A stretch of DNA of 64,000 nucleotides from Eledone cirrhosa (taxonomy: Eukaryota). Positions 4,958 to 59,851 of this stretch are shown here, piece after piece. Below the pieces are notes generated by a model that was not told where the DNA came from, did no database searches, and saw only the letters and a program-made list of their open reading frames with translations. Positions within the stretch are counted from its first letter, which is position 1. Each line of letters begins with the position of its first letter. The translations under genes were made by a program, and so were the position numbers. The stretch spans positions 395,498,001 to 395,562,000 of the forward strand of contig OZ024740.1 in assembly GCA_964016885.1 (NCBI GenBank), read 5' to 3'.

Positions 4958-4960
<3 letters not shown>

Positions 4961-5000: not shown

Positions 5001-5037
<37 letters not shown>

Positions 5038-5220
5038 CACCCTCTCATACACACACACACACAAACATACATATATAGAAACACATATAAGCTTCTCTTC
5101 ATTATTTTTTCAAATTCCCACAACCAATATTCTCTTGAGATGAATTATAGTGGTTTTACTGTTCTATGTATATATATTAGTATTGGTGATATGTATATGT
5201 ATGTAAGCATGTGTGTATAT

Positions 5221-5365: not shown

Positions 5366-5410
5366 ATAGAAGATCACTCATCGGCTCTTACACGCACACA
5401 CACACACATT

Positions 5411-5560
5411 ACACAGAAAAATAGCAAAGCAAACAACACAGAACGATGAATACATATATTAGTTTAATGCTTGAAATAATAGGAAAAGAGTCTTAACGTT
5501 TTGGATACTTGTCCTTCATCAGAAGATAGAATGAGAAATAAAAGATGAAAGAGAAAGCTA
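5411..5560 (-). mobile_element. Dispersed repeat with minimal hammerhead-ribozyme motif (Penelope-like terminal repeat)
   Basis: Minus strand 5526-5491: tctt CTGATGA a ggac aagt atcc aAAAC gtt aaga, followed by tcaagcattaaactaat, shared with the 52.8 kb and 63.9 kb copies. Confidence 0.65.
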
Positions 5561-5762
5561 GAGATTGAGAAGAGGAAGGAATGGAAAAAATATTGAGAAA
5601 AAGAAACATGTATTCAGTCAGCTATTTTGGAGAGATGTTGGTCAGTGGGTATCTTAGGTATTAGAGAAGTTTAGGAAGGGAGGTAATCATTGTATATTTG
5701 GTGTTGACATATGTATCCGTGTGTGTGCACATGCAGCATGTGTGTGCGTGTGTGTAGGTTTG

Positions 5763-5976
5763 TTTGTTTGTATAGAGATTTGTGGGATGGGCATTGGACC
5801 ATGACAGGCTGGCTGCTGTGAGTGTGTGGAGGTGTAAGTGAGTATGCACACAGGAACTGACCAACATAGTTTGTTTGTGCAGAGATTTGTAGGATGGTCA
5901 TTGGACCGTGACAGGCTGGCTGCTGTGAGTGTGTGGAGGTGTGAGTGAGTATCCACACAGGAACTGACTAACATAG
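5763..5976. repeat. 107-bp tandem duplication (2 copies)
   Basis: 5763-5869 and 5870-5976 are colinear with about 8 substitutions. Confidence 0.9.
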
Positions 5977-6304
5977 AAGATGTACAAATATGTATATGAA
6001 TTTCTGTGGATACATACACACACAGAAATAGTAGAAAGGGGCTGTATAGAAAAGAAGTCAGTAGTAAATATAGTCGTTGACTTTATATTTCATTTTGTCG
6101 TATGGTCATAAGAGAAGATGCTTCACTTCAGGTACAACAATATGGTGGTACAACCACAAATGGTTAAACAGGTAGTTGTTCAATCAACTGTGTACTCTAC
6201 TTGTTAAATCCCATAGACAGGAGTATCATTAACGTAATTCTCAAACTAAATTAGCATGACATGACCTTCTAATTACAAATACAATTGACCTGACAAAATT
6301 TCAC

Positions 6305-6430
6305 AGTTTCTTTTTACTTAATTTCACTCACAAGGTTTGTGTTGACATGAGGGTACGGTAGAGATACTTGCCTAAGATTCTATACTGTGGGATCAAACCA
6401 AGGACCCCATCATTTGAATACACATACACC
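6305..6430 (-). mobile_element. Degenerate CORE-like SINE
   Basis: agatacttgcctaag...gtgggatcaaacc, the reverse complement of B-box plus cttaggcaagtatct. Confidence 0.45.
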
Positions 6431-7880: not shown

Positions 7881-8228
7881 ATATTACATTAATTAAAGTA
7901 ATATCACCATTGTACTGATCAACAACTGAGTAAGAGAGAGTTAAATACTTTGTTTGAGCAATGGCACAACACAGAACTGTTTGAAAGACACACACCATTG
8001 ACCCAGTAGTTGGTAGTCTAACATATTATCCATTCACCCAGATGGGATTCTTATCTAACAGTACACACCAAACAGAAACAACAACAAAAATAGCAATAAA
8101 GTATTGTAATCGATAACAACAATGGAAAAAAAGAATAGTTACTATTACCATGACTACATGAACAGAATCAACCTTGGCAAAACAAAGAATAACAATCTAA
8201 ATAAAATCTGTGTTTAGTAGAACTAATG

Positions 8229-29200: not shown

Positions 29201-32200
29201 TACAACAACTGTCTGTACACCACTGGGCTAACCTGGTGCTATACAACAACTCTCTGTACACCACTGGGCTTACCTGGTGCTATACAACAACTGTCTCTAC
29301 ACCACTGGGCTAACCTGGTGTTATACAACAACTGTCTGTACACCACTGGGCTAACCTGGTATTATACAACAACTATCTATACACCACTGGATTAACCTGG
29401 TGTTATACAACAACTGTCTGTACACCACTGGGCTAACATGGTGCTATACAACAACTGTCTGTACACCACTGGGCTAACCTGGTGTTATACAACAACAGTC
29501 TGTACACCACTGGGCTAACTTTATGGGATACCTCAACTCTCTGTACACCACTGGGCTAACCTGATGTTATACAACAACTGTCTGTACACCACTGGGCTAA
29601 CCTGGTGCTATACAACAACTGTCTGTACACCACTGGGCTAACCTGGTGTTATACAACAACTGTCTGTACACCACTGGGCTAGCCTGGTGTTATACAACAA
29701 CTGTCTGTACACCACTGGTCTAACCTGGTGTTATACAACAACTGTCTGTACACCACTGGGCTAACTTAGTGCTATACAACAACTGTCTGTACACCACTGG
29801 GCTAATCTGATGGGATACCTCAACTGTCTGTACACCACTGGGCTAACCTGATGTTATACAACAACTGTCTGTACACCACTGGGCTAACCTGGTGTTATAC
29901 AACAACTGTCTGTACACCACTGGGCTAACCTGGTGCTATACAACAACTGTCTATACACCACTGGGATAACCTGGTGTTATAAAACAACTGTCTGTACAGC
30001 ACTGAGCTAACCTGGTGTTATACAACAACTGTCTGTACACCACTGGGCTAACCTGATGTTATACAACAACTGTCTGTACACCACTGGGCTACCTGATGTT
30101 ATACAACAACTGTCTGTACACCACTGGGCTAACCTGGTGTTATACAACAACTGTCTGTACACCACTGGGCTAACCTGGTGTTATACAACAACTGTCTGTA
30201 CACCACTGGGCTAACCTGGTGCTATACAACAACTGTCTGTACACCACTGGGCTAACCTGGTGTTATACAACAACTGTATGTACACCACTGGGCTAACCTG
30301 ATGTTATACAACAACTGTCTGTACACCACTGGGCTAACCTGGTGTTATACAACAACTGTCTGTACACCACTGGGCTAACCTGATGTTATACAACAACTGT
30401 CTGTACACCACTGGGCTAACCTGGTGTTATACAACAACTGTCTGTACACCACTGGGCTAACCTGATGTTAAACAACAACTGTCTGTGCACCACTGGGCTA
30501 ACCTGATGTTATACAACAACTGTCTCTACACCACTGGGCTAACCTAGTGCTATACAACAACTGTCTGTAGACCACTGGGCTAACCTGGTGTTATACAACA
30601 ACTGTCTTTACACCACTGGGCTAACCTGGTGTTATACAACAACTGTCTGTACACCACAGGGCTAACCTGGTACTATACAACAACTGTCTCTACACCACTG
30701 GGCTAACCTGGTATTATACAACAACTGTCTGAACACCACTGGGCTAACCTGGTGCTATACAACAACTGTCTATACACCACTGGGCTAACCTGGTGTTATA
30801 CAACAACTATCTATACACCACTGAGCTAACCTGGGTGTTATACAACAACTGTCTATGCACCACTGGGCTAACCTGGTGTTATACAACAACTGTCTGTACA
30901 CCACTGGGCTAACCTGGTGCTATACAACAACTGTCTGTACACCACTGGACCTAACCTGGTGCTATACAACAACTGTCTGTACACCACTGGACTAACCTGG
31001 TGCTATACAACAACTCTCTGTACACCACTGGGCTAACCTGGTGCTATACAACAACTGTCTCTACACCACTGGGCTAACCTGGTGTTATACAACAACTGTC
31101 TGTACACCACTGGGCTAACCTGGTATTATACAACAACTATCTATACACCACTGGACCTAACCTGGTGCTATACAACAACTGTCTGTACACCACTGGACTA
31201 ACCTGGTGCTATACAACAACTCTCTGTACACCACTGGGCTAACCTGGTGCTATACAACAACTGTCTGTACACCACTGGGCTAACCTGGTGTTATACAACA
31301 ACAGTCTGTACACCACTGGGCTAACTTTATGGGATACCTCAACTGTCTGTACACCACTGGGCTAACCTGATGTTATACAACAACTGTCTGTACACCACTG
31401 GGCTAACCTGGTGCTATACAACAACTGTCTGTACACCACTGGGCTAACCTGGTGTTATACAACAACTGTCTGTACACCACTGGGCTAGCCTGGTGTTATA
31501 CAACAACTGTCTGTACACCACTGGTCTAACCTGGTGTTATACAACAACTCTCTGTACACCACTGGGCTAACGTGGTGCTATACAACAACTCTCTGTACAC
31601 CACTGGGCTAACCTGGTGTTATACAACAACTATCTGTACCCCACTGGGCTAACCTGGTGCTATACAACAACTATCTGTACACCACTGGGCTAACCTGGTG
31701 CTATACAACAACTGTCTGTACACCACTGGGCTAACCTGGTGTTATACAACAACTATCTGTACACCACTGGGCTAACCTGGTGCTATACAACAACTGTCTG
31801 TACACCACTGGGCTAACCTAGTGCTATACAACAACTGTCTGTACACCACTGGGCTAACCTGGTGTTATACAACAACTGTCTGTACAACACTGGGCTAACT
31901 TAGTGCTATACAACAACTGTCTGTACACCACTAGGCTAACCTAGTGCTATACAACAACTGTCTGTACACCACTGGGCTAACCTGGTGTTATACAACAACT
32001 GTCTGTACACCACTGGGCTAACCTAGTGCTATACAACAACTGTCTGTACACCACTGGGCTAACCTAGTGCTATACAAGAACTGTCTCTAAACCACTGGGC
32101 TAACCTGGTGTTATACAACAACTGTCTGTACACCACTGGGCTAACTAGGTGTTATACAAGAACTGTCTGTACACCACTGGGCTAACCTGGTGCTATACAA

Positions 32201-35200
32201 CAACTGTCTTTACACCACTGGGCTAACCTGGTATTATACAACAACTGTCTGTACACCACTGGGCTAACCTGGTGCTATACAACAACTGTCTGTACACCAC
32301 TGGGCTAACCTGTTGTTATACAACAACTGTCTGTACACCACTGGGCTAACCTGGTGTTATACAACAACTGTCTGTACACCACTGGGCTAACCTGGTGTTA
32401 TACAACAACTGTCTCTTCACCACTGGGCTAACCTGGTGATATACAACAACTGTCTCTACACCACTGGGGTAACCTGGTGTTATACAACAACTGTCTCTAC
32501 ACCACTGGGCTAACCTGGTGCTATACAACATCTGTCTGTACACCACTGGGCTAACCTGGTGCTATACAACAACTGTCTGTACACCACTTGGCTAACCTGG
32601 TATTATACAACAACTATCTGTACACCACTGGGCTAACTTGGTGCTATAAAACAACTGTCTGTAAACCACTGGGGTAACCTGATGTTATACAACAACTGTC
32701 TGTACACCACTGGGCTAACCTGGTGCTATACAACAACTGTCTGTACACCACTGGGCTAACCTGGTGTTATACAACAACTGTCTGTACAACACTGGGCTAA
32801 CCTGGTGTTATACAGCAACTGTCTGTACACCACTGGGCTAACCTGGTGTTATACAGCAACTGTCTGTACACCACTGGGCTAACCTGGTCCTATACAACAA
32901 CTGTCTGTACACCACTGGGCTAACCTGGTGTTATACAACAACTGTCTGTACAACACTGGGCTAACCTGGTGTTTTACAGCAACTGTCTGTACACCACTGG
33001 GCTAACCTGGTGTTATACAACAACTGTCTGTACACCACTGGGCTAACCTGGTGTTATACAACAACTGTCTGTACACCACTGGGCTAACCTGGTGCTATAC
33101 AACAACTGTCTGTACACCACGTGGCTAACCTGGTGTTATACAACAACTGTCTGTACACCACTGGGCTAACCTGGTGTTATACAACAACTGTCTGTACACC
33201 ACTGGGCTAACCTGGTGCTATACAACAACTGTCTGTACACCACTGGGCTAACCTGGTGCTATACAATAACTGTCTGTACACCACTGGGCTAACCTGGTGT
33301 TAACAACAACTGTCTGTACACCACTGGGCTAACCTGGTGCTATACGACGACTGTCTGTACACCACTGGGCTAACCTGGTATTATACAACTGTCTGTACAC
33401 CACTGGGCTAACCTGGTGTTATACAACAACTGTCTATACACCACTGGGCTAACTTGGTGTTATACAACAACTGTCTGTACACCACTGGGCTAACCTGGTG
33501 TTATACAACAACTCTCTGTACACCACTGGGCTAACCTGGTGTTATACAACAACTGTCTGTACACCACTGGGCTAACCTGGTGCTATACAACAACTGTCTG
33601 TACACCACTGGGCTAACCTGGTGCTATACAACAACTATCTGTACAACACTGGGCTAACCTGGTGTTATACAACAACTGTCTGTACACCACTGGGCTAACC
33701 TGGTGTTATACAACAACTGTCTGTACACCACTGGGCTAACCTGGTGCTATACAACAACTGTCTGTACACCACTGGGATAACCTGGTATTATACAACAACT
33801 GTCTGTACACCAATGGGCTAACCTGGTGCTATACAACAACTGTCTGTACACCATTGGGATAACCTGGTATTATACAACAACTGTCTGTACACCACTGGGC
33901 TAACCTGGTGCTATACAACAACTGTCTGTACACCATTGGGATAACCTGGTATTATACAACAACTGTCTGTACACCAATGGGCTAACCTGGTGTTATACAA
34001 CAACTATCTATACACCACTGGGCTAACCTGGTGTTATACAACTGTCTGTACACCACTGGGCTAACCTGGTGCTATACAACAACTGTCTGTACACCACTGG
34101 GCTAACCTGGTGCTATACAACAACTGTCTTTACACCACTGGGCTAACCTGGTGTTATACAACAACTGTGTCTACACCACTGGGCTAACCTGGTGTTATAC
34201 AACAACTGTCTGTACACCACTGGGCTAACCTGATGTTATACAACAACTGTCTGTACACCACTGGGCTAACCTGGTGTTATACAACAACTGTCTGTACACC
34301 ACTGGGCTAACCTGGTGCTATACAACAACCGTCTGTACACCACTGGGCTAACCTGGTGCTATACAACAACTGTCTGTACACCACTGGGCTAACTTGGTAT
34401 TATACAACAACTGTCTGTACACCACTGGGCTAACCTGGTGTTATACAACAACTATCTATACACCACAGAACTAACCTGGTGTTATACAACAACTGTCTAT
34501 ACACCACTGGGCTATCCTGGTGCTATACAACAACTGTCTGTACACCACTGGGCTAACCTAGTGCTATACAACAACTGTCTGTACACCACTGGGCTATCCT
34601 GGTGCTATACAACAACTGTCTGTACACCACTGGGCTAACCTAGTGCTATACAACAACTGTCTGTACACCACTGGGCTATCCTGGTGCTATACAACAACTG
34701 TCTGTACACCACTGGGCTAACCTGGTGTTATACAACAACTATCTATACACCACTGGGCTAACCTGGTGTTATACAACAACTGTCTGTACACCACTGGGCT
34801 AACCTGGTGTTATACAACAACTGTCTGTACACCACTGGGCTAACCTGGTGTTATACAACAACTGTCTGTACACCACTGGGCTAACCTGGTGCTATACAAC
34901 AACTGTCTGTACACCACTGGGCTAACCTGGTGCTATACAGCAACTGTCTATACACCACTGGGCTAACCTGGTGCTATACAACAACTGTCTGTACAACACT
35001 GGGCTATCCTCGTGCTATACAACAACTGTCTTTACACCACTGGGCTAACATGGTGTTATACAACAACTGTCTCTACACCACTGGGCTAACCTGGTATTAT
35101 ACAACAACTATCTATACACCACTGGGTTAACCTGGTGTTATACAACAACTGTCTGTACACCACTGGGCTAACCTGGTGTTATACAACAACTGTCTGTACA

Positions 35201-38200
35201 CCACTGGGCTAACCTGGTGTTATACAACAACTATCTATACACCACTGAGCTAACCTGGTTGTTATACAACAACTGTCTATACACCACTGGGCTAACCTGG
35301 TGTTATACAACAACTGTCTGTACACCACTGGGGTAACCTGGTGCTATACAACAACTGTCTGTACACCACTGGGCTAACCTAGTGCTATACAACAACTGTC
35401 TGTACACCACTGGGCTAACCTGGTGTTATACAACAACTGTCTGTACACCACTGGGCTAACCTGGTGTTATACAACAACTGCCTGTACACCACTGGGCTAA
35501 CCTGGTGTTATACAAGAACTGTCTGTACACCACTGGGCTAACCTGGTGTTATACAACAACTGTCTGTACACCACTGGGCTAACCTAGTGTTATACAAGAA
35601 CTGTCTGTACACCACTGGGCTAACCTGGTGCTATACAACTGCCTTTACACCACTGGGCTAACCTGGTGTTATACAATAACTGTCTGTACACCACTGGGCT
35701 AACCTGGTGCTATACAACAACTCTCTGTACACCACTGGGCTAACCTGGTGTTATACAACAACTGTCTGTACACCACTGGGCTAACCTGGTGTTATACAAC
35801 AACTGTCTGTACACCACTGGGCTAACCTGGTGTTATACAACAACTGTCTGTACACCACTGGGCTAACTTGGTGTTATACAACAACTGTCTGTACACCACT
35901 GGGCTAATCTGGTGTTATACAACAACTGTCTGTACACCACTGGGCTAACCTGGTGCTATACAACAACTGTCTGTACACCACTGGGATAACCTGGTATTAT
36001 ACAAGAACTGTCTGTACACCAATGGGCTAACCTGGTGCTATACAATAACTGTCTGTACACCACTGGGCTAACCTGGTGTTATACAACAACTGTCTGTACA
36101 CCACTGGGCTAACCTGGTGCTATACGACGACTGTCTGTACACCACTGGGCTAACCTGGTATTATACAACTGTCTGTACACCACTGGGCTAACCTGGTGTT
36201 ATACAACAACTGTCTATACACCACTGGGCTAACTTGGTGTTATACAACAACTGTCTGTACACCACTGGGCTAACCTGGTGTTATACAACAACTCTCTGTA
36301 CACCACTGGGCTAACCTGGTGTTATACAACAACTGTCTGTACACCACTGGGCTAACCTGGTGCTATACAACAACTGTCTGTACACCACTGGGCTAACCTG
36401 GTGCTATACAACAACTATCTGTACAACACTGGGCTAACCTGGTGTTATACAACAACTGTCTGTACACCACTGGGCTAACCTGGTGTTATACAACAACTGT
36501 CTGTACACCACTGGGCTAACCTGGTGCTATACAACAACTGTCTGTACACCACTGGGATAACCTGGTATTATACAACAACTGTCTGTACACCAATGGGCTA
36601 ACCTGGTGCTATACAACAACTGTCTGTACACCATTGGGATAACCTGGTATTATACAACAACTGTCTGTACACCACTGGGCTAACCTGGTGCTATACAACA
36701 ACTGTCTGTACACCATTGGGATAACCTGGTATTATACAACAACTGTCTGTACACCAATGGGCTAACCTGGTGTTATACAACAACTATCTATACACCACTG
36801 GGCTAACCTGGTGTTATACAACTGTCTGTACACCACTGGGCTAACCTGGTGCTATACAACAACTGTCTGTACACCACTGGGCTAACCTGGTGCTATACAA
36901 CAACTGTCTTTACACCACTGGGCTAACCTGGTGTTATACAACAACTGTGTCTACACCACTGGGCTAACCTGGTGTTATACAACAACTGTCTGTACACCAC
37001 TGGGCTAACCTGATGTTATACAACAACTGTCTGTACACCACTGGGCTAACCTGGTGTTATACAACAACTGTCTGTACACCACTGGGCTAACCTGGTGCTA
37101 TACAACAACCGTCTGTACACCACTGGGCTAACCTGGTGCTATACAACAACTGTCTGTACACCACTGGGCTAACTTGGTATTATACAACAACTGTCTGTAC
37201 ACCACTGGGCTAACCTGGTGTTATACAACAACTATCTATACACCACAGAACTAACCTGGTGTTATACAACAACTGTCTATACACCACTGGGCTATCCTGG
37301 TGCTATACAACAACTGTCTGTACACCACTGGGCTAACCTAGTGCTATACAACAACTGTCTGTACACCACTGGGCTATCCTGGTGCTATACAACAACTGTC
37401 TGTACACCACTGGGCTAACCTAGTGCTATACAACAACTGTCTGTACACCACTGGGCTATCCTGGTGCTATACAACAACTGTCTGTACACCACTGCGCTAA
37501 CCTGGTGTTATACAACAACTATCTATACACCACTGGGCTAACCTGGTGTTATACAACAACTGTCTGTACACCACTGGGCTAACCTGGTGTTATACAACAA
37601 CTGTCTGTACACCACTGGGCTAACCTGGTGTTATACAACAACTGTCTGTACACCACTGGGCTAACCTGGTGCTATACAACAACTGTCTGTACACCACTGG
37701 GCTAACCTGGTGCTATACAGCAACTGTCTATACACCACTGGGCTAACCTGGTGCTATACAACAACTGTCTGTACAACACTGGGCTATCCTCGTGCTATAC
37801 AACAACTGTCTTTACACCACTGGGCTAACCTGGTGTTATACAACAACTGTCTCTACACCACTGGGCTAAGCTGGTATTATACAACAACTATCTATACACC
37901 ACTGGGTTAACCTGGTGTTATACAACAACTGTCTGTACACCACTGGGCTAACCTGGTGTTATACAACAACTGTCTGTACACCACTGGGCTAACCTGGTGT
38001 TATACAACAACTATCTATACACCACTGAGCTAACCTGGTTGTTATACAACAACTGTCTATACACCACTGGGCTAACCTGGTGTTATACAACAACTGTCTG
38101 TACACCACTGGGGTAACCTGGTGCTATACAACAACTGTCTGTACACCACTGGGCTAACCTAGTGCTATACAACAACTGTCTGTACACCACTGGGCTAACC

Positions 38201-41200
38201 TGGTGTTATACAACAACTGTCTGTACACCACTGGGCTAACCTGGTGTTATACAACAACTGCCTGTACACCACTGGGCTAACCTGGTGTTATACAAGAACT
38301 GTCTGTACACCACTGGGCTAACCTGGTGTTATACAACAACTGTCTGTACACCACTGGGCTAACCTAGTGTTATACAAGAACTGTCTGTACACCACTGGGC
38401 TAACCTGGTGCTATACAACTGCCTTTACACCACTGGGCTAACCTGGTGTTATACAATAACTGTCTGTACACCACTGGGCTAACCTGGTGCTATACAACAA
38501 CTCTCTGTACACCACTGGGCTAACCTGGTGTTATACAACAACTGTCTGTACACCACTGGGCTAACCTGGTGTTATACAACAACTGTCTGTACACCACTGG
38601 GCTAACCTGGTGTTATACAACAACTGTCTGTACACCACTGGGCTAACTTGGTGTTATACAACAACTGTCTGTACACCACTGGGCTAATCTGGTGTTATAC
38701 AACAACTGTCTGTACACCACTGGGCTAACCTGGTGCTATACAACAACTGTCTGTACACCACTGGGATAACCTGGTATTATACAAGAACTGTCTGTACACC
38801 AATGGGCTAACCTGGTGCTATACAACAACTCTCTGTACACCATTGGGATAACCTGGTATTATACAACAACTGTCTGTACACCAATGGGCTAACCTGGTGC
38901 TATACAACAACTGTCTGTACACCATTGGGATAACCTAGTATTATACAACAACTGTCTGTACACCACTGGGCTAACCTGTTGCTATTCAACAACTGTCTGT
39001 ACACCATTGGGATAACCTGGTATTATACAACAACTGTCTGTACACCAATGGGCTAACCTGGTGTTATACAACAACTATCTATACACCACTGGGCTAACCT
39101 GGTGTTATACAACTGTCTGTACACCACTGGGCTAACCTGGTGCTATACAACAACTGTCTGTACACCACTGGGCTAACCTGGTGCTATACAACAACTGTCT
39201 TTACACCACTGGGCTAACCTGGTGTTATACAACAACTGTGTCTACACCACTGGGCTAACCTGGTGTTATACAACAACTGTCTGTACACCACTGGGCTAAC
39301 CTGATGTTATACAACAACTGTCTGTACACCACTTGGCTAACCTGGTGTTATACAACAACTGTCTGTACACCACTGGGCTAACCTGGTGCTATACAACAAC
39401 CGTCTGTACACCACTGGGCTATCCTGGTGCTATACAACAACTGTCTGTACACCACTGGGCTAACCTAGTGCTATACAACAACTGTCTGTACACCACTGGG
39501 CTATCCTGGTGCTATACAACAACTGTCTGTACACCACTGGGCTAACCTGGTGTTATACAACAACTATCTATACACCACTGGGCTAACCTGGTGTTATACA
39601 ACAACTGTCTGTACACCACTGGGCTAACCTGGTGCTATACAACAACTGTCTGTACACCACTTGGCTAACCTGGTGTTATACAACAACTGTCTTTACACCA
39701 CTGGGCTAACCTGGTGTTATACAACAACTGTCTGTACACCACTGGGCTAACCTGATGTTATACAACAACTGTCTGTACACCACTTGGCTAACCTGGTGTT
39801 ATACAACAACTGTCTGTACACCACTGGGCTAACCTGGTGTTATACAACTGTCTGTACACCACTGGGCTAACCTGGTGCTATACAACAACTGTCTGTACAC
39901 CACTGGGCTAACCTGGTGCTATACAGCAACTGTCTATACACCACTGGGCTAACCTGGTGCTATACAACAACTGTCTGTACACCACCTTGCTATCCTGGTG
40001 CTATACAACAACTGTCTTTACACCACTGGGCTAACCTGGTGTTATACAACAACTGTCTGTACACCACTGGGCTAACCTGGTATTATACAACAACTATCTA
40101 TACACCACTGGGTTAACCTGGTGTTATACAACAACTGTCTGTACACCACTGGGCTAACCTGGTGTTATACAACAACTGTCTGTACACCACTGGGCTAACC
40201 TGGTGTTATACAACAACTATCTATACACCACTGAGCTAACCTGGTTGTTATACAACAACTGCCTGTACACCACTGGGCTAACCTGGTGTTATACAACAAC
40301 TGTCTGTACACCACTGGGCTAACCTGGTTTTATACAACAACTGTCTGTACACCACTGGGCTAACCTAGTGTTATACAAGAACTGTCTGTACACCACTGGG
40401 CTAACCTGGTGCTATACAGCTGCCTTTACACCACTGGGCTAACCTGGTGTTATACAATAACTGACTGTACACCACTGGGCTAACCTGGTGCTATACAACA
40501 ACTCTCTGTACACCACTGGGCTAACCTGGTGTTATACAACAACTGTCTGTACACCACTGGGCTAACCTGGTGTTATACAACAACTGTCTGTACACCACTG
40601 GGCTAACCTGGTGTTATACAACAACTGTCTGTACACCACTGAGCTAACTTGGTGTTATACAACAACTGTCTGTACACCACTGGGCTAACCTGGTGTTATA
40701 CAACAACTGTCTGTACACCACTGGGCTAACCTGGTGTTATACAACAACTCTCTGTACACCACTGGGCTAACCTGGTGTTATACAACAACTGTCTGTACAC
40801 CACTGGGCTAACCTGGTGTTATACAACAACTTTCTTTACACCACTGGGCTAACCTGGTGTTGTACATCAACTGTCTGTACACCACTGGGCTAACCTGGTG
40901 CTATACAACAACTGTCTGTACACCACTGGGCTAACCTGGTATTATACAACAACTGTCTGTACACCACTGAGCTAACCTGGTGTTATACAACAACTGTCTA
41001 TACACCACTGGGCTATCCTGGTGCTATACAACAACTGTCTGTACACCACTGGGCTAACCTAGTGCTATACAACAACTGTCTGTACACCACTGGGCTATCC
41101 TGGTGCTATACAACAACTGTCTGTACACCACTGGGCTAACCTAGTGCTATACAACAGCTGTCTGTACACCACTGGGCTATCCTGGTGCTATACAACAACT

Positions 41201-44200
41201 GTCTGTACACCACTGGGCTAACCTGGTGTTATACAACAACTGTCTGTACACCACTGGGCTAACCTGGTGCTATAGAACAACTGTCTGTACACCATTGGGC
41301 TAACCTGGTGCTATACAACAACTGTCTGTACACCACTGGGCTAACCTGGTATTATACAACAACTGTCTGTACACCACTGGGCTAACCTGGTGTTATACAA
41401 CAACTATCTATACACCACTGGGCTAACCTGGTGCTATACAACAACTGTCTTTACACCACTGGGCTAACCTGGTGTTATACAACAACTGTCTCAACACCAC
41501 TGGGCTAACCAGGTGTTATACAACAACTGTCTGTACACCACTGGGCTAACCTGATGTTATACAACAACTGTCTGTACACCACTTGGCTAACCTGGTGTTA
41601 TACAACAACTATCTGTACACCACTGGGCTAACCTGGTGTTATACAACAACTGTCTGTACACCACTGGGCTAACCTGGTGCTATACAACAACTGTCTGTAC
41701 ACCACTGGGCTAACCTGGTGCTATACAGCAACTGTCTATATACCACTGGGCTAACCTGGTGCTATACAACAACTGTCTGTACACCACTGGGCTATCCTTG
41801 TGCTATACAACAACTGTCTTTACACCACTGGGCTAACCTGGTGTTATACAACAACTGTCTGTACACCACTGGGCTAACCTGGTGCTATACAACAACTGTC
41901 TGTACACCACTGGGCTAACCTGGTATTATACAACAACTATCTATACACCACTGGGCTAACCTGGTGTTATACAACAACTGTCTGTACACCACTGGGCTAA
42001 CCTGGTGTTATACAACAACTGTCTGTACACCACTGGGCTAGCCTGGTGCTATACAACAACTATCTATACACCACTGAGCTAACCTGGGTGTTATACAACA
42101 ACTGTCTATACACCACTGGGCTAACCTGGTGCTATACAACAACTGTCTGTACACCACTGGGCTAACCTAGTGCTATACAACAATTGTCTGTACACCACTG
42201 GGCTAACCTGGTGTTATACAACAACTGTCTGTACACCACTGGGCTAACCTGGTGTTATACAACAACTGTCTGTACACCACTGGGCTAACCTGGTGTTATA
42301 CAAGAACTGTCTGTACACCACTGGGCTAACCTGGTGCTATACAACTGCCTTTACACCACTGGGCTAACCTGGTGTTATACAATAACTGTCTGTACACCAC
42401 TGGGCTAACCTGGTGCTATACAACAACTGTCTGTACACCACTGGGCTAACCTGGTGTTATACAACAACTGTCTGTACACCACTGGGCTAACCTGGTATTA
42501 TACAACAACTGTCTGTACACCACTGGGCTAACCTGGTGTTATACAACAACTGTCTGTACACCACTGGGCTAACCTGGTGCTATAAAACAACTGTCTGTAC
42601 ACCACTGGGGTAACCTGGTGCTATACAACAACTGTTTGTACACCACTGGGCTAGCCTGGTGCTATACAACAACTGTCTCTACACCACTGGGCTAACCTGG
42701 TGCTATACAACAACTGTCTCTACACCACTGGGCTAACCTGGTGATATACAACAACTGTCTCTACACCACTGGACTAACCTGGTGCTATACAGCAACTGTC
42801 TGTATACCACTCGGCTAACCTGGTGTTATACAACAACTGTCTGTACACCACTGGGCTAACTTAGTGTTATACAACAACTGTCTGTATACCACTGGGCTAA
42901 CCTGGTGTTATACAACAACTGTCTGTACACCACTGGGCTAACCTGGTGCTAGACAACAACTGTCTGTTCACCACTGGGCTAACCTGGTGCTATACAACAA
43001 CTGTCTGTACACCACTGGGCTAACCTGGTATTATACAACAACTGTCTGTACACCACTGGGCTAACCTGGTGTTATACAACAACTATCTATACACCACTGG
43101 GCTAACCTGGTGCTATACAACAACTGTCTTTACACCACTGGGCTAACCTGGTGTTATACAACAACTGTCTCAACACCACTGGGCTAACCTGGTGTTATAC
43201 AACAACTGTCTGTACACCACTGGGCTAACCTGATGTTATACAACAACTGTCTGTACACCACTTGGCTAACCTGGTGTTATACAACAACTATCTGTACACC
43301 ACTGGGCTAACCTGGTGTTATACAACAACTGTCTGTACACCACTGGGCTAACCTGGTGCTATACAACAACTGTCTGTACACCACTGGACTAACCTGGTGC
43401 TATACAGCAACTGTCTATATACCACTGGGCTAACCTGGTGCTATACAACAACTGTCTGTACACCACTGGGCTATCCTTGTGCTATACAACAACTGTCTTT
43501 ACACCACTGGGCTAACCTGGTGTTATACAACAACTGTCTGTACACCACTGGGCTAACCTGGTGCTATACAACAACTGTCTGTACACCACTGGGCTAACCT
43601 GGTATTATACAACAACTATCTATACACCACTGGGCTAACCTGGTGTTATACAACAACTGTCTGTACACCACTGGGCTAACCTGGTGTTATACAACAACTG
43701 TCTGTACACCACTGGGCTAACCTGGTGCTATACAACAACTATCTATACACCACTGAGCTAACCTGGGTGTTATACAACAACTGTCTATACACCACTGGGC
43801 TAACCTGGTGTTATACAACAACTGTCTGTACACCACTGGGGTAACCTGGTGCTATACAACAACTGTCTGTACACCACTGGGCTAACCTAGTGCTATACAA
43901 CAATTGTCTGTACACCACTGGGCTAACCTGGTGTTATACAACAACTGTCTGTACACCACTGGGCTAACCTGATGTTATACAACAACTGTCTGTACACCAC
44001 TGGGCTAACCTGGTGTTATACAAGAACTGTCTGTACACCACTGGGCTAACCTGGTGCTATACAACTGCCTTTACACCACTGGGCTAACCTGGTGTTATAC
44101 AATAACTGTCTGTACACCACTGGGCTAACCTGGTGCTATACAACAACTGTCTGTACACCACTGGGCTAACCTGGTGTTATACAACAACTGTCTGTACACC

Positions 44201-46404
44201 ACTGGGCTAACCTGGTATTATACAACAACTGTCTGTACACCACTGGGCTAACCTGGTGTTATACAACAACTGTCTGTACACCACTGGGCTAACCTGGTGC
44301 TATACAACAACTGTCTGTACACCACTGGGGTAACCTGGTGCTATACAACAACTGTTTGTACACCACTGGGCTAGCCTGGTGCTATACAACAACTGTCTCT
44401 ACACCACTGGGCTAACCTGGTGCTATACAACAACTGTCTGTACACCACTGGGGTAACCTGGTGCTATACAACAACTGTTTGTACACCACTGGGCTAACCT
44501 GGTGATATACAACAACTGTCTCTACACCACTGGACTAACCTGGTGCTATACAGCAACTGTCTGTATACCACTCGGCTAACCTGGTGTTATACAACAACTG
44601 TCTGTACACCACTGGGCTAACTTAGTGTTATACAACAACTGTCTGTATACCACTGGGCTAACCTGGTGTTATACAACAACTGTCTGTACACCACTGGGCT
44701 AACCTGGTGCTAGACAACAACTGTCTGTTCACCACTGGGCTAACCTGGTGCTATACAACAACTGTCTGTACACCACTGGGCTAACCTGGTGCTATACAAC
44801 AACTGTCTCTACACCACTGGGCTAACCTGGTGCTATACAAAAACTGTCTCTACACCACTGGGCTAACCTGGTGCTATACAACAACTGTCTCTACATCACT
44901 GGGCTAACCTGGTGTTATACAACAACTGTCTGCAACCACTGGGCTAACCTGGTGCTATACAACAACTGTCTGTACACCACTTGGCTAACCTGGTATTATA
45001 CAACAACTGTCTGTACACCACTGGGCTAACCTGGTGCTATAAAACAACTGTCTGTACACCACTGGGCTAACCTGGTGTTATACAACAACTGTCTGTATAC
45101 CACTGGGCTAACCTGGTGTTATACAACAACTGTCTGTACACCACTGGGCTAACCTGGTGCTAGACAACAACTGTCTGTACACCACTGGGCTAACCTGGTG
45201 CTATACAGCAACTGTCTGTACACCACTGGGCTAATTTGGTGCTATACAACAACAGTCTGTACACCACTGGGCTAACCTGGTGCTATACAACAACTGTCTG
45301 TACACCAATGGGCTAACCTGGTCGTATACAACAACTGTCTTTACACCACTGGGCTAACCTGGTGCTATACAACAACTGTTTGTACACCACTGGGCTAACC
45401 TGGTGTTATACAACAACTGTCTGTACACCACTGGGCTAACCTGGTACTATACAACAACTGTCTGTACACCACTGGGCTAACCTGGTGTTAGACAACAACT
45501 GTCTGTACACCACTGGGCTAACCTGGTGTTATACAACAACTGTCTGTACACCACTGGACTAACCTGGTGTTATACAACTATCTATACACCACTGGGCTAA
45601 GCTGGTGCTATACAACAACTGTCTGTACACCACTGGGCTAACCTGGTGTTATACAACAACTGTCTGTACACCACTGGGCTAACCTGGTGCTATACAACAA
45701 CTGTTTGTACACCACTGGGCTAACCTGGGTGTTATACAACAACTGTCTGTACACCACTGGGCTAACCTGGTACTATACAACAACTGTCTGTACACCACTG
45801 GGCTAACCTGGTGCTATACAACAACTGTCTGTACACCACTGGGCTAACCTGGTGTTAGACAACAACTGTCTGTACACCACTGGGCTAACCTGGTGTTATA
45901 CAACAACTATCTATACACCACTGGGCTAACCTGGTGCTATACAACAACTGTCTGTACACCACTGGGCTAACCTGGTGTTAGACAACAACTGTCTGTACAC
46001 CACTGGGCTAACCTGGTGTTAGACAACAACTGTCTGTACACCACTGGGCTAACCTGGTGTTATACAACAACTGTCTGTACACCACTGGGCTAACCTGGTG
46101 TTATACAACAACTGTCTGTACACCACTGGGCTAACCTGGTGCTATACAACAACTGTCTGTACACCACTGGGCTAACCTGGTGTTATACAACAAGTGTCTG
46201 TATACCACTGGGCTAACCTGGTGCTATACAACAACTGTCTGTACACCACTGGGCTAACCTGGTGCTATACAACAACTGTCTGTACACCACTGGGCTAACC
46301 TGGTGTTATACAACAACTGTCTGTACACTACTGGGCTAACCTGGTGTTATACAACAACTGTCTGTACACTACTGAGCTAACCTGGTGTTATACAACAACT
46401 ATCT
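8229..46404. repeat. 41-bp tandem satellite array, ~38.2 kb, ~930 copies; consensus acctggtgYtatacaacaactgtctgtacaccactgggcta
   Basis: Continuous head-to-tail period of 41 with sparse substitutions and 1-3 bp indels; no insertion or inversion seen. Confidence 0.99.
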
Positions 46405-46559
46405 AAATGCCATAAGACTTTTGGATCAGGGATCACCTGGTGTTATACAACAACTTTATAAATGCCATAAGACTTTTGGATCAGGGATCACCTGATGTTA
46501 TACAACAACTGTCTGCATGTCACAGGATTGCTGGTTAAAAAGTGACCTTGGGCTAAACA
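46380..46559. repeat. Three 55-bp satellite-related units plus a partial fourth at the array edge
   Basis: acct starts at 46380, 46435, 46490 and 46545 (period 55); the first 21 bp match the 41-mer in the first three units. Confidence 0.9.
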
Positions 46560-46579
46560 TAAAACACTATTAAGCTAAA

Positions 46580-46725
46580 AGCTAGACCTGCTAGAAATAA
46601 AATTCAAGATTCCCTCGAATCATACCTTACCATCTTATAAAATGGAAGGATACATTAGGTAATGTAGTTTTAGATATTAAATTAAAAAACACATAATCGT
46701 AGTTGACCTAGGACTAAACAATACC
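46580..46725 (+). mobile_element. SINE-like family C copy
   Basis: gacctgctagaaata...ccctcgaatcataccttaccatctt...aatgtagt...tgacctaggactaaacaa. Confidence 0.65.
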
Positions 46726-46777
46726 CAGGCATAATAAATACAGGTATCATCAACAAGAACAGTTATGAAGCCAATAG

Positions 46778-46970
46778 TGGAACCTCTACATGGTCGTTTG
46801 ACTAGCTAAAAACAACTGTCAAATCTCCCACAGTTCTTATAAAAAGATGTATTGAACAATGTAGTCTTGAGTTCATATCACGCAGGAAAACTATGAAATG
46901 ATTTTAATTGTAATACCTTTGATCACTCTACTTACTGCCATATAAAAGGAACAGCTAAACAGCAAGAACA
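46778..46970 (+). mobile_element. SINE-like family C copy (degenerate)
   Basis: ggaacctctacatggtcgtttgactagcta...caaatctccc...aatgtagtc...aatacctttgatca...gctaaacagcaa. Confidence 0.6.
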
Positions 46971-47099
46971 TTCTTATCTCTTTCTCACCTGACTTCTCTT
47001 TGTACAAGATGAAGTTTCAAAGGTGTGCAATTTCAAGAGGAATGTCTTGATAAAGAGTTTAGTGTTAGACTCAGCAAAGAGTTCAGTATTGATGGCAAA

Positions 47100-47462
47100 T
47101 ATCAGCAACAATATAGCAATAAATAATAACAATAACAACTGCAACAAAACCAACAGTAACATTATTAACAACAACTGCAGTGGCAATAACAACTGCAGCA
47201 GCAATAAAAGCCACTGCAGTTGAATAACTACAGCAGCAATAACAGCAACTGCAGCAGCAATAACAGCCACTGCAGTTGAATAACAACTGCAGCAGTAATA
47301 ACAGCAACTGCATCAACTGCAGCAGCAATAATAGCCACTGCAGCTGTAATAACTCTGACTATACAACAACAGAACATCAGCTACATTAATATTACCAACA
47401 GTTGCAACTGTGAAAATAACAGTAGTTGCAATGGCAACAAATATAACAACTGCAATAGTAAT
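47100..47462. repeat. Degenerate CAA/CAG/TAA low-complexity tract with ~22-bp aactgcagcagcaataacagcc units
   Basis: Direct reading. Confidence 0.8.
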
Positions 47463-47464
47463 AA

Positions 47465-47670
47465 TTGTTTCTACTTTAGGCACAAGGCCAGCAATTTCAA
47501 GGGAGAGGAAAGTTGATTAAATCAACCCCAGTGCATTACTGGTGCTTTATTTTATCAGCCCATAAGGATGAAAGGCAAAGCTAACCTCGGCAGGATTTGA
47601 ACTCAGAACGTAAAGGGCCATAACTTTATGCTGCAAAGCATGGTGTCTGACGCTCTACCGATTCTGCCAG
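47465..47670 (-). mobile_element. SINE family B, near full length
   Basis: Minus strand starts ctggcagaatcggtagagcgtcagac (A-box-like), then B-box gagttcaaatcc and the core cttgcctttcatcc-like segment; homologous to 1703-1862. Confidence 0.85.
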
Positions 47671-47699
47671 TAAGAATAGTAAGAATAGCCACATGAATA

Positions 47700-48122
47700 C
47701 CAACAAGAACTTCAACAATGATAACAGCAACATAACTGTAACATTAACAACAACAACAATAACAACAACTGCAACAGTAATAACAACAACATAAATAACA
47801 AGGACAACAATGTGAATAACAACAACAGTAGCAACAACAACAACTGTAACAACATCAACAATAGCAACAACAACAACAATAGCAACAATAACTGTAGCAA
47901 CATCAACAACAGTAACAACAACAACTGTAGCAACAACAACAACTGTAACATCAACAACAGCAACAATTGCAAGCTCATAAAGAATGTAACAACTCACATA
48001 AATTACTAACAACAACAATAACAGTAATAATAATAATCACAACAACAACAACAATGATAGCACCAAAAACAACAATAATAATAATAACAGCAATAAGAAC
48101 AACAACAAAAGCAACAACAACA
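47700..48122. repeat. Degenerate (CAA)n microsatellite
   Basis: Direct reading. Confidence 0.9.
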
Positions 48123-48207
48123 TGTTTTCATTTGTAAAAGTAACAATGTAAGAATTAGATTGGAACAAGGATTAATCAATAAGATGACTTTAACTAACCC
48201 TGCCCTA

Positions 48208-48432
48208 CCACATACATACATGCACACACACACACACACACACATACATACACATGCACGTACACACATACATACACAAATAAACACACACACACACGCA
48301 TACACAAATAAACACACACACACACATGCATACACAAATAAACGCATTCAATATTTATGCACACACACATTCAGACATGCACATTTTCCCACTTGTACAC
48401 TTACTCACACACACACACACACACACACACAG
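48208..48432. repeat. (CA)n-rich microsatellite
   Basis: Direct reading. Confidence 0.9.
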
Positions 48433-48497
48433 TCACATACCATAGCTTGCATTATCTGCATTGCACCACCACCACCTTCCCCACTAACACCATCACT

Positions 48498-49285
48498 ATA
48501 TGGTTGTTAAACCTGCTAGAAACAGCAGCCAAATCCTCCTGAGATCCCACCCCATAGTCTTAAAAAAATGAATTGCACATTAGATAATGTAGTCATTGAT
48601 ACACAAAAAGATAAGGTCCTGACTATGTTTAGTAGCTCAGAGCTGGAGTTAAACAGATGCCGCACATCAACTACAACATGAGCCAAGGAGAGAGAATGTT
48701 TATGGTCACTTGACCTGCTATCAAAAGCTACCAAATCTCCCTCAGATCACACACTACCATCTTTAAAAAAGACATGCTGCATAATGTGATCCTGAGTTCC
48801 CTACACACAGTAAAATCATTGGATGGTCACAACTGGAATACCTTTAATCATAGGTCTGTTTGATCAGTGCTGACAACAATGAGCCAACATAGGAGCCTCT
48901 ACATGGCTACTCAGCCCACTAGAAAAAGGAGCCAAATTCGCCTAAAAACTGCTGTCTTAACACGTTAGCCTTCACATTACTTTATATTTACTATTGTATT
49001 TTCATGGTAAAGGCTTTACCTGACATAATTATCTCACATAATATTGAAACTATGAGATTTTGATATTATTTATTTTGAGAACAATATCTTAACATCAGTA
49101 TGAGTATGAGCAGACAGTTACAGTCAGTTTGAACAGAAAGGGGTGAAAGAATTCTGGCTGGATACGGCCAGTTTAAATACTAAAGGGTTAAACAAGGTAG
49201 AACACAATTTGTATTAGAAACTTGAATATATTGTCTGAAATTAAGATGGGATGGTCATGACTGGAATGTTTTTATTATAGTCAAG
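48498..49285 (+). mobile_element. Cluster of three family C copies (~48498-48640, ~48700-48880, ~48891-49285; the last is split by a MITE)
   Basis: Recurrent atggtNNNtNacctgctagaaa..agccaaatc motif at 48500, 48702 and 48903; gatggtcaNNactggaat at 48822 and 49250. Confidence 0.7.
48961..49187. mobile_element. TTAA-flanked MITE (piggyBac-type ends)
   Basis: ttaa|cacgttag ... ctaaaggg|ttaa (TSD 48957-60 and 49188-91); termini match 6/8; interrupts a family C copy. Confidence 0.6.
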
Positions 49286-49589: not shown

Positions 49590-50835
49590 TTCACCACCAC
49601 CATCACCAACACAATCATCATCATTATCATCAGGGACAGCTTTACCATTCTATCACTGTCTTCAATAGCAACAAGAATAATAACATTAATATAAATGTCA
49701 GCAGCAGTAAAACTACCATTTCCACTACCACCATTACTGCTGCTGCTACGGCCACCATTACCACCACCACCATCATCATCATCATCGTCAATGCTTCATC
49801 ATCTTCGACACTACCATCAATCCCCAGAAAGATCATTATCTCTTATGCAGCCTCTTTACTTCTACCAGCACCAACAACAACAACAACAACATCAACACCT
49901 CAGCCACCATTATCAACATCACTAATGCTGCTTCATTTTTCAACCACTACCGCCACCACCACCACCACCACTACTACCACCACCACCACCACTATCACTA
50001 CTATTACTACCACCACGACCACCACTACTACTACTACTACCACCTTCAACAACAACACCACCACCACCACCTACCACCTTCACACCCTTGAAATATCATT
50101 ATCACTTACGTAGCTTTGTTACTCTTAACACTACCATCTCCCCCTTCACTATTATCAACATCACTTCCTCCCCCTCCAACACTTCCTCCCCCTCCATCAC
50201 TACCTCTCTCTCCATCACAATCATCTTAACTATTACCACCACCACCACCACCACCCCACCACCATTGCTACAACCATCAATAACACCAGCATTACTATTA
50301 CCACCTTCATGACAATCCCTACCCCTGCTACTACAATCAATACTACCATCACAACCACCACCAGAACCACCCTCCGCCATCACTGCCACCACCACCACCA
50401 TCACAACTACCACTACTGCAGCTACTTTAATAGCACTGTCACTAATACTACCATCACCATCACCACTACATCAGCCAACACTGCTACTGCCACCAATACC
50501 ACCACCACAATACTAACGCCATCACCGCTACTACCATCAATACTGCCACCACAACTGCTACTACCACCAATACCACCCCAATACATCTACCTCTACTGCT
50601 ACTACCACCAATACCACCCCAATACATCTACCTCTACTGCTACTACCACCAATACCACCCCAATACATCTACCTCTACTGCTACTACCACCAATACCACC
50701 CCAATACATCTACCTCTACTGCTACTACCACCAATACCACCCTAATACATCTACCTCTACTGCTACTACCACCAATACCACCCTAATACATTCACCTCTA
50801 CAACCACCACTGCTACTACTACAACTACTACTACA

Positions 50836-51030: not shown

Positions 51031-51840
51031 CACCACCCCACCACAACACCCTCCAACACAACCAGCACCATCAACACCACCACCACCACCACCCCACCAC
51101 AACACCCTCCACACCACCACCACCACCACGACACCCTCCACACCACCACCCCACCACAACACCCTCCAACACAACCAGCACCATCAATACCATCACCACC
51201 CCACCACGACACCCTCCAACACAACCAGCACCACCACCTCCACCACCACCTCACCACGACACCCTCCAACACAACCAGCACCATCAACACCAACACCACC
51301 ACCACCACCACCCCACCACCCTCCAACACAAGCAGCACCATCAACACCATCACACCACGACACCCTCCAACACAACCAGCTCCATCAACACCACCACCAC
51401 CCCACCATGACACCCTCCAACACAACCACCACCACCACCACCACCATCACCACCCCCACCACGATACCCTCCAACACAACCACCACCACCACCACCACCA
51501 CCACCCCACCACGACACCCTCCAACACAACCACCACCACCACCACCACCATCACCACCCCCACCACGATACCCTCCAACACAACCACCACCACCACCACC
51601 ACCACCACCCCACCACGACACCCTCCAACACAACCACCACCACCACCACCACCATCACCACCCCACCACGACACCCTCCAACACAACCACCACCACCACC
51701 ACCATCACCACCCCACCACGACACCCTCCAACACAACCAACACAACCAGCACCATCACCACCCCACCACGACACCCTCCAACACAACCAGCACCACCACC
51801 ACACCACCACGACACCCTCCAACACAACCAGCTCCAACAA
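51030..51840. repeat. Variable-length minisatellite: ccccaccacgacaccctccaacacaacca core plus (cac)n spacer
   Basis: caccctccaacacaa core recurs about 15 times at roughly 40-60 bp spacing. Confidence 0.88.
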
Positions 51841-52304
51841 CACCCCTCCTCTCACTCTCTCTACTTTTATTAGTGTTTCACTGTTTTGGTTTGATCCAGA
51901 AAATCCCTCTGATCGCCACCCTCTCCCCCCCCCCCTTCCTGTGTCCTGTCTCATTAAAGCAATCTGTTGGCTTTCCTGGCTGAAGATGTAATAAGAGGAG
52001 GATGTAACACACACAGTATGTTAAATGTAAGCAAGAGTAGCAGTGGTTGGTGGGTGAGAGTGCGGGTGAGGGTGGGGGTGAGGGTGAGAGAAGGGCTGTG
52101 TGAGCAAAAACAACAAAAGCATTAAAATAATGAGTGGGTGGTGGGATTTGTTGGGGGCAGGGAAGGGGGAAGTTGATGAAAGCAACAATATTGATATTTG
52201 TTGTTATATATTGGCCTCATAATATTAGCTGCTTGTGTGTGTATGTGTATATATGTGTGTGTCCTCATCATCATTTAACATGTATATGTATATTATGTAT
52301 CTGC

Positions 52305-57905: not shown

Positions 57906-58199
57906 TATAGTGTGAATATAATATTTCTTACCAAGCTATCTTTTCATTTATCAAGCCTGTTGCTTCAACAATTAATTATTTACCATAGATCCCCTGTTTC
58001 CAATAAGTAAAGGAAAGAACCTGATTAACCATAATTCTTCCCACCTTCAATGATTTCTTCATCATTTACTTTGTGATTTCTCTTTGTTTCTCATTCATCT
58101 TTACCTGTACTATGAATTATATGTATCTACTGGGTATCCAACATATATTGTGTATCTGTTATACATATAGTGTATATCTATTATATATATATGTGTGTA

Positions 58200-59795
58200 T
58201 ATTGTGTATCTACTATATATATATATATTTATTGTGTATCTACTATATATATATATATTGTGTATCTACTGTATATATATTGTATATCTACTGTACATAT
58301 ATTATATATCTACTGTATATATATTGTATATCTACTGTATATACATTATATATCTACTGTATATATATTATATATCTACTGTATATATATTGTATATCTA
58401 CTGTATATATATTGTATATCTACTGTATATATATTGTATATCAACTGTATATATATTGTATATCTACTGTATATATATTGTATATCTATTGTACATATAT
58501 TGTATATCTACTGTATATATATTGTATATCTACTGTACATATATTATATATCTACTGTATATATATTGTATATCTACTGTATATACATTATATATCTACT
58601 GTACATATATTATATATCTATTGTATATATATTGTATATCTACTGTATATATATTGTATATCTACTGTATATATATTGTATATCAACTGTATATATATTG
58701 TATATCTACTGTATATATATTGTATATCTATTGTACATATATTGTATATCTACTGTATATATATTGTATATCTACTGTACATATATTATATATCTACTGT
58801 ATATATATTGCATATCTACTGTATATATATTGTATATCAACTGTATATATATTGTACATATATTGTATATCTACTGTATATATATTGTATATCTACTGTA
58901 CATATATTATATATCTACTGTATATATATTGTATATCTACTGTATATATATTGTATATCTATTGTACATATATTGTATATCTACTGTATATATATTGTAT
59001 ATGTACTGTATATCTACTGTATATATATTGTATATCTACTGTATATATATTGTATATCTACTGTATATATATTGTATATCTATTGTACATATATTGTATA
59101 TCTACTGTATATATATTGTATATGTACTGTATATATATTGTATATCTACTGTATATATATTGTATATTTACTGTATATATATTGTATATCTATTGTACAT
59201 ATATTGTATATCTACTGTATATATATTGTATATGTACTGTATATATATTGTATATTTACTGTATATATATTGTATCTACTGTATATATTGTATATCTACT
59301 GTATATATATTGTATATCTATTGTACATATATTGTATATCTACTGTATATATATTGTATATCTACTGTACATATATTATATATCTACTGTATATATATTG
59401 CATATCTACTGTATATATATTGTATATCTACTGTATATATATTGTACATATATTGTATATCTACTGTATATATATTGTATATCTACTGTACATATATTAT
59501 ATATCTACTGTATATATATTGTATATCTACTGTATATATATTGTATATCTATTGTACATATATTGTATATCTACTGTATATATATTGTATATGTACTGTA
59601 TATATATTGTATATCTACTGTATATATATTGTATATCTACTGTATATATATTGTATATCTACTGTATATATATTGTATATCTATTGTACATATATTGTAT
59701 ATCTACTGTACATATATTGTATATCTACTGTATATATATTGTATATGTACTGTATATATATTGTATATCTACTGTATGTATATTCTATATCTATT
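58200..59795. repeat. 22-bp AT-rich minisatellite (ctactgtatatatattgtatat), ~70 copies
   Basis: Period of 22 read directly, e.g. from 58381 onward. Confidence 0.96.
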
Positions 59796-59851
59796 GTTTT
59801 ATGATCATGAACTAGATACCGTAACTACTAAGTCATAGCTTTCACTATGTA

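Follow-up and report, generated by a model that had tools for sequence, protein, structure and literature searches.

A single-locus array of 41-bp units

The window, by which we mean the whole analysed stretch of 64,000 nucleotides, contains a minisatellite of 41-bp units on the forward strand (positions 8229 to 46404), which comprises about 930 units and 38 kb at a single locus. TRF describes it as one array with a period of 41, 932.6 copies and 93% matches. Intervals between unit starts measure 41 bp in 888 of 929 cases and 55 bp in two, and the 888 41-mers lie at a mean distance of 3.5% from the commonest unit. Blocks seem to have been duplicated recently within the array, given that stretches of 38, 37 and 33 identical units come back at shifts of 4304 and 2780 bp. 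The variants of the 41-mer are regionally distributed along 8229 to 46404.

The array stands among copies of a dispersed repeat, here called family C. On the minus strand, the 3′ half of a copy was detected at 5221 to 5355 (nhmmer 51 bits, profile positions 79 to 218). To the right of the array, copies on the plus strand occupy 46581 to 46674 (44 bits, profile positions 34 to 122) and 46769 to 46925 (75 bits, profile positions 7 to 176). These are followed by three head-to-tail copies or fragments, also on the plus strand, at 48495 to 48655, 48679 to 48874 and 48879 to 48959 (65, 179 and 27 bits), of which the second was the seed query, so that its 179 bits are inflated. Other tandem arrays lie further to the right: an unrelated 41-bp array of six copies (50554 to 50801, 98%) and a 50-bp array of 14 copies (51144 to 51844) inside ACC-rich simple repeats, and an AT-rich 22-bp tandem (58143 to 59797, 75 copies, 90% matches).

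The 41-bp array is single-locus at exact-match sensitivity. All 434 exact matches of a 27-base core of the 41-mer in the 3.0-Gb assembly fall in the window, as do 621 of the 622 matches of a 15-base motif from its satellite-specific part. Exact patterns were preferred for genome counts because similarity search skips common words; a similarity search with the edge region, to which this applies, matched this locus alone. The search for other 41-mer arrays, which the preliminary description had proposed, thus returned none with these two exact motifs, a procedure that arrays diverged beyond exact 15-mers escape. At this sensitivity, the array would have originated at this locus, no older array being found elsewhere.

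Contigs from two public runs of one sample reproduced positions 46410 to 47000 without differences and the left junction with one difference. This agreement gives the assembly weak support at both junctions, as the sample may be the assembly's own source. One contig, which seemingly skipped 130 bp at the left edge, was considered as an allele without the array and rejected, as the loose end of this contig belongs to a family C copy elsewhere, on contig C4, that is unrelated to the locus. No coverage of the locus was found in RAD-seq runs from other individuals. No pointer to function was found, and the array is most likely neutral DNA.

Family C is SINE-like in size and tail only

Family C is a dispersed repeat of about 225 bp. 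Its profile (226 positions) was built from 33 copies at 29 loci elsewhere in the genome, and copies average 76% identity to it, that is, about 24% divergence. The copy in the window used as query gave 40 scored matches from 450 candidates, while the profile gave 10 matches in 380 kb of arbitrarily placed stretches. Exact 15-mers of family C occurred 1782 times, versus 3 in the control. Family C is short, dispersed and of high copy number, as expected of a SINE. It also has a 3′ tail of simple repeats, another SINE trait: its end consists of a hairpin (z −2.9; 7 of 1000 shuffles) and then a short CAA tail. One to nine CAA-like triplets, mostly two or three, were present in 99 of 113 ends, a count that is biased upward by the many ends found through the tail motif.

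Promoter boxes and a SINE-type head were not found. Two regular expressions found no Pol III box A or B in the sense strand of the profile, Rfam gave no tRNA, 5S or 7SL match on five family C loci, and relaxed ARAGORN reported nothing in 36 of 40 copies taken with 150 bp of flank. A head of tRNA, 5S or 7SL origin that carries Pol III boxes therefore seems to be lacking. Hence, the label "SINE-like" used in the preliminary description is apt for size and tail and fails for promoter boxes and tRNA head.

Family C appears to be neither a MITE nor a solo LTR. The profile has no terminal inverted repeat, and no new sequence is shared upstream of 58 full-length copies. At 56 truncated ends, all of the abutting pairs listed (20 of 57) were family C itself, and the downstream pairs listed (15 of 24) all belonged to one array cluster on contig C25; no longer parent element was seen beside the copies, either upstream of the 58 full-length ones or among these downstream pairs. 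Flanks shared words of at least 8 bp in 3 of 40 own pairs and 77 of 1560 crossed pairs, which gives no sign of an excess of target-site duplications, although about 24% divergence would erase many of them. Among the 10 matches in random stretches, 5′-only fragments (6 of 10) were more numerous than 3′-only fragments (3 of 10). A Helitron origin, suggested by the hairpin near the end, was dropped, as the spacing and target site typical of Helitrons do not seem to fit. No name for family C was found in the accessible parts of PMC13282606, PMC4758252 and PMC8967140, and four family C motifs gave no literature match.

Family C copies also cluster. There were 54 matches in 29 loci of 3 kb, each chosen for one copy, compared with 5 in 380 kb of other sequence when an equal threshold was applied; the clustering is seen in the flanks of loci L032 to L060 and at 46581 to 48959 of the window. 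Whole copies stand head to tail in 4 of 40 loci. On contig C18 (L139 to L143; 30.20 to 30.23 Mb and 34.58 Mb), a family C end recurs together with its flank every 5.6 or 11.4 kb, as would be expected if a segment of several kb were repeated in tandem.

Edge units in a 55-bp register

The right edge of the array runs on into element sequence through three 55-bp units and a terminal element end, all on the plus strand. Unit B (46380 to 46434) joins an array-type first 26 bp to 29 bp of old element end. Unit C (46435 to 46489) matches unit B at 52 of 55 positions in element phase (TRF 96%) and is its recent duplicate. Unit D (46490 to 46544) is old and diverged: its last 35 bp match unit B at 19 of 35 positions without gaps (11 of 20,000 shuffles as good), and in element phase (46510 to 46564) it agrees with unit B at 32 of 55. 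The final piece (46545 to 46564) matches the family C profile at 16 of 20 positions and carries family-type bases at the three positions where the array departs from family C. The preliminary description had listed four units starting at 46380, 46435, 46490 and 46545. Their 55-bp spacing is correct, but there are only three periods, as 46545 opens the last 20 bp of an element end. The bases joining tail and satellite occur at one further genomic site (L135), whose tandem junction differs, so that the 55-bp junction looks specific to this locus.

The left edge is less clear-cut. A putative left-edge unit (8194 to 8248, plus strand) consists of an old 35-bp part, which precedes the array, and the 20 bp with which the array begins. 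The 35-bp part matches unit B in register at 19 of 35 positions without gaps (6 of 20,000 shuffles and 102 of 379,965 genomic 35-mers as good), and its start agrees with that of unit B at 8 of 9 bp, although no array sequence lies upstream of it. Against unit D, the match was 14 of 35 and not significant. The left flank is thus probably a 55-register unit too, and the left array edge probably runs on into element sequence as well. The loose resemblance of the left junction itself to the family C terminus, which had been claimed, could not be upheld: 1445 of 3000 shuffles were as good, and an anchored comparison gave 9 of 24 (fraction 0.09).

Immediately upstream, on the plus strand, lies a probable, very decayed full family C copy (7996 to 8195), with a collinear alignment over about 220 profile positions. 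This copy was missed by nhmmer, and its match is borderline: the score was equalled by 9 of 1000 shuffles and by 10 of 1366 genomic stretches with lenient scoring, which was adopted after strict scoring of the 3′ part had given 117 of 2000. It is likely to be the body of the founder copy.

The 41-mer resembles the family C end beyond chance

Local alignment to the family C profile gave the 41-mer a score of 37, which none of 3000 dinucleotide shuffles reached. Units B, C and D scored 48, 44 and 36 (0, 1 and 0 of 3000 shuffles), and the best score among 47 other tandem units from 400 kb was 29. The core of the 41-mer matches the profile at 22 of 26 positions, and unit B, the best family C match at the locus, at 34 of 44 without gaps. 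On these alignments, the 41-mer is evidently homologous to part of a dispersed repeat. The genome-wide profile thus yielded matches that beat shuffles and are stronger than the figures given earlier for single copies. Those figures were themselves sound: 19 of 26 for the edge segment against the family C 3′ end near 48849, and 19 of 26 for the satellite core against the terminus at 5221 to 5246, the latter with the C variant of the 41-mer and 18 of 26 with the commonest unit. The 21 bp specific to the 41-mer gave no match to family C when taken alone (2928 of 3000 shuffles as good).

We give next to no credence to the notion that the resemblance arose by chance, aided by the simple CAA tail. 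The match is short and includes a low-complexity tail, and an unrelated family end (L204) reached the same 20 bp independently; still, no shuffle (0 of 3000) and none of the other tandem units (0 of 47) did as well, and the array stands among same-strand family C copies. Moreover, the 24 bp of unit B upstream of the shared block match the profile at 17 of 24 positions with the tail left out, as did none of about 380,000 genomic windows. For units B, C and D, a chance resemblance was already refuted.

Units B and C as probable mosaic sisters

Unit B is identical to the array over a shared block (20 of 20) and differs from it at 8 of 21 positions elsewhere (Fisher p 0.003). Its first 26 bp are found identically in 11 of 888 41-mers and represent a double variant that is restricted to the right half of the array (25 units, 29025 to 45888). 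The first 26 bp of unit D are found in 56 of 888. The 55-mers are accordingly nested in 41-mer diversity, an outcome that had been named as contrary to a birth record, in their first 20 to 26 bp and not in their last 29 bp. At position 9, family C ends carry C in 97 of 130 cases and T in 27 of 130. The C is kept in 284 of 888 41-mers (the family-type base occurs in 24 of 72 left-hand units, 88 of 378 middle units and 150 of 369 right-hand units), and units B and C carry T, which is a weak marker of descent, being common in family C.

This pattern makes it likely that units B and C are mosaic sister units rather than frozen ancestors. Most simply, 41-mers and 55-mers would have gone on exchanging the shared block once their unit lengths had separated. 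As the start of unit B is also present in the left flank, exchange may have run in either direction.

Read literally, the edge would be a birth record, with units B and C as the preserved direct ancestors, one of whose kind lost 14 bp just before the expansion. Such a reading would account for the match of 33 of 41 after one 14-bp gap, the identity of the first 20 bp and the position of unit B as the best family C match at the locus. Yet, in an array lying 3.5% from its commonest unit, a split of 8 of 21 against 0 of 20 differences to a recent parent is unexpected (p 0.003). Over the 8 bp that immediately precede the shared block, both the 41-mer and unit B depart from family C, each at two different positions, and a third of the 41-mers keep a family base at position 9 that is absent from units B and C. 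We regard this reading as quite improbable.

The opposite course, in which units B and C derive from 41-mers, would have 29 bp of old element end replace the last 15 bp of a unit at the edge, with duplication afterwards. The first 26 bp of both unit B, with its haplotype of the right array half, and unit D, with its identical counterparts in 56 of 888 units, speak in its favor. It explains the mosaic, but not the 55-bp register common to unit B, unit D and the left flank, and the 29 bp would still need an old local 55-bp unit. Hence, it largely folds into the explanation that we favor, and on its own it has as little to recommend it as the literal record.

Proposed origin from an old 55-bp tandem

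Based on these findings, we postulate that the single-locus 41-bp minisatellite arose through the loss of 14 bp in an old tandem whose 55-bp units were copies of a family C end, followed by recent local expansion, a history that we consider probable. First, a family C copy at the locus would have had its end repeated with a 55-bp period, as seen at the right edge and probably at the left. This tandem may be about as old as family C, since the agreement of units B and D (32 of 55) is about that of two independent copies at 76%, which makes a near-equal age likely. Next, short internal repeats spaced by 14 bp would have allowed slippage or unequal exchange, from which the 41-bp unit emerged. A single unit may have suffered a deletion, or two units may have exchanged once while misaligned by 41 bp; both routes lead to an identical sequence. 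The 41-mer would then have grown by slippage of units and by duplication of the 2.8 to 4.3 kb blocks observed in the array. Lastly, exchange between 41-mers and edge 55-mers may have preserved the likeness of the shared 20 to 26 bp as the remainder diverged, leaving units B and C as mosaic sisters of the founder.

The family C end does hold short direct repeats 14 and 16 bp apart. A 14-bp deletion fitting the 41-mer was found in 2 of 130 family C ends (L179 and L183), and seven loci contributed 9 of 130 ends in which 14 to 16 bp are deleted there; this stretch is the one that folds as a hairpin. The 7-bp deletion of the 55-mers is also present in L169, one of the 130 ends. As reported earlier, removing 14 bp from the first 55-bp unit gives 33 of 41 matches to the commonest 41-mer, and the cut after position 33 is the best of 42 placements. 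Of these matches, 20 are the shared first 20 bp, and the remainder, with its one 14-bp gap, is 13 of 21 (245 of 100,000 shuffles as good). The stretch that discriminates in favor of a 14-bp loss is only 7 bp long (4 of 7 to unit B), and 6 more bp may reflect later exchange, so the 41-mer's own sequence would lend the loss modest support.

A direct duplication of the last 41 bp or so of the family C end would dispense with the 55-bp step, the 55-mers then being neighbors whose shared part was converted later. The best local alignment of the 41-mer covers 39 profile positions with two small gaps and is not in the register of a 55-mer minus 14 bp, and end duplications of 31 to 141 bp exist at other loci. 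Nevertheless, the extra 5-bp match in that alignment adds only about one score point, and its middle 7 bp fit badly. The part specific to the 41-mer opens with the same 6 to 13 bp, in the same register, as units B and D, and the left flank shares its start with unit B with no upstream array to convert it. We consider such a direct origin unlikely, albeit somewhat less so than the two readings of the edge units weighed above.

The chain from element end through 55-bp tandem and 14-bp loss to expansion, which had been put forward in the preliminary description, is therefore retained as the best reading, given that the family C match beats shuffles, that no other 41-mer array was found and that the 14-bp deletion recurs in the family. 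Its claim of preserved ancestors is abandoned.

Tandem arrays elsewhere in the genome

Tandems of the family C end were found at 15 other loci; the tail motif led to most of them, and their number is therefore not an unbiased rate. They range from 2 to 4 old units at L032 and 3.9 copies of 56 bp at L116 (78%) to 6 copies of 47 bp at L105 (97%), 9.8 copies of 81 bp at L147 and 13.8 copies of 129 bp at L149, and are also present at L124, L128, L135, L144, L150, L152, L181, L183 and L192. The longest of those measured, at L148 (2072 to 6000) and L154 (G000:C1:17969072-17976960), consists of about 176 copies of 46 bp (7.9 kb, 90% matches) and starts directly after a family C copy. Of the 42 tail-motif loci that come first on contig C1, 4 were in tandem, by TRF or exact motif. 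Whether tandems count as enriched at family C ends varies with the baseline chosen: p is 0.003 for a founder footprint of 1.5% and 0.46 for a coverage of 8.3%. Some tandems involve the 5′ and middle parts of family C (L124, L148, L150), so that a 3′ preference is at most conjectural.

Long minisatellites are ordinary in this genome, as arrays of 48- to 55-bp units longer than 5 kb occurred in 3 of 38 arbitrarily placed 10-kb stretches. Those at L072, L092 and L100 have units of 48, 55 and 52 bp, and none matches family C. Meanwhile, L149, L150, L151 and L152 (contig C25, 11.7 to 13.7 Mb) have one family C tandem junction in common, with periods of 129 to 214 bp; one derived unit has thus spread over about 2 Mb. 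L154 also holds 41 copies of a 45-bp unit (4549 to 6389, 98% matches) from the end of a different short repeat, which directly precedes that array and is also present in the window at 47481 to 47669.

As a tentative and rather doubtful generalization, the hairpin and (CAA)n end of family C may act as a genome-wide minisatellite nursery, in which tandem ends would be made at insertion by repeated priming of reverse transcription and trimmed between hairpin repeats, with some exploding. If this were true, every stage would be found in one genome: 2 to 4 old units (L116, L032), young short arrays (L105, L144, L147), and arrays of 8 and 38 kb. This locus would then have captured a switch in unit length, with relic units at either edge.

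Comparison with known systems

The host of the 41-bp array is presumably an octopod, unlike that of the squamate satellites sSat1-3 discussed below. Among molluscs, the Helitron and MITE central tandem arrays of bivalves are likewise tied to a short non-coding element, and are carried inside it to many sites. In contrast, the array described here is located at an element end and at one site, with no terminal inverted repeat found. Those bivalve arrays are listed in Table 1 of PMC6947457.

The closest parallels come from the accessible parts of PMC10702118. As in sSat1-3, the unit derives from part of a short dispersed repeat, and the terminal unit keeps the element end; most of these SINE-derived satellites retain a longer terminal unit that matches the SINE to its end. 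Single loci of nearly 950 and more than 1200 units are described there, as are truncated unit variants (PMC10702118). The likeness extends to single-locus arrays of up to about 950 to 1200 units, the long ones being more homogeneous, to variants with a truncation of 16 to 23 nt, the shortest of which prevail in long arrays, and to many short failed loci beside a few long ones (PMC10702118). Compared with sSat1-3 (PMC10702118), the array in the window has a shorter unit, of 41 bp, which was cut from the very 3′ end of its parent. Longer and older units survive at the right and probably the left edge, and the parent is SINE-like in size and tail only. The notion that preserved intermediates are uncommon, which had been part of the interest in this locus, does not hold, given the 15 other family C end-tandem loci and the fact that a terminal SINE piece is usual in squamate satellites, according to the accessible text of PMC10702118.

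Minisatellites derived from Alu and B1, together with the Haber-Louis model of slippage at short repeats, are reviewed in PMC6947457, of which parts were accessible. In that model, the first duplication or deletion is guided by direct repeats of 5 to 10 bp in the element, and later growth proceeds via slippage, conversion and unequal crossing-over, both of which resemble the course proposed here (PMC6947457). The array in the window is far longer, at 38 kb, than the minisatellites covered there, which reach up to 100 units (PMC6947457), and it shows a change of unit length at one locus.

The seeding of arrays by short repeats has thus already been described in reptiles and mammals. No literature on such seeding in octopods was found in our search, outside of which most subscription journals lay. 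In our view, the 41-bp array is likely to be a clear, if ordinary, instance of a tandem array that was seeded by mobile-element-like sequence. The locus is a well-resolved case of a long tandem array starting from a short dispersed repeat, and its change of unit length may be explained by short repeats that gave the same deletion elsewhere. It also illustrates that half-homogenised edge units may mislead as ancestors. Thousands of family C copies and at least 15 other end tandems form a natural series for studying which seeds expand.
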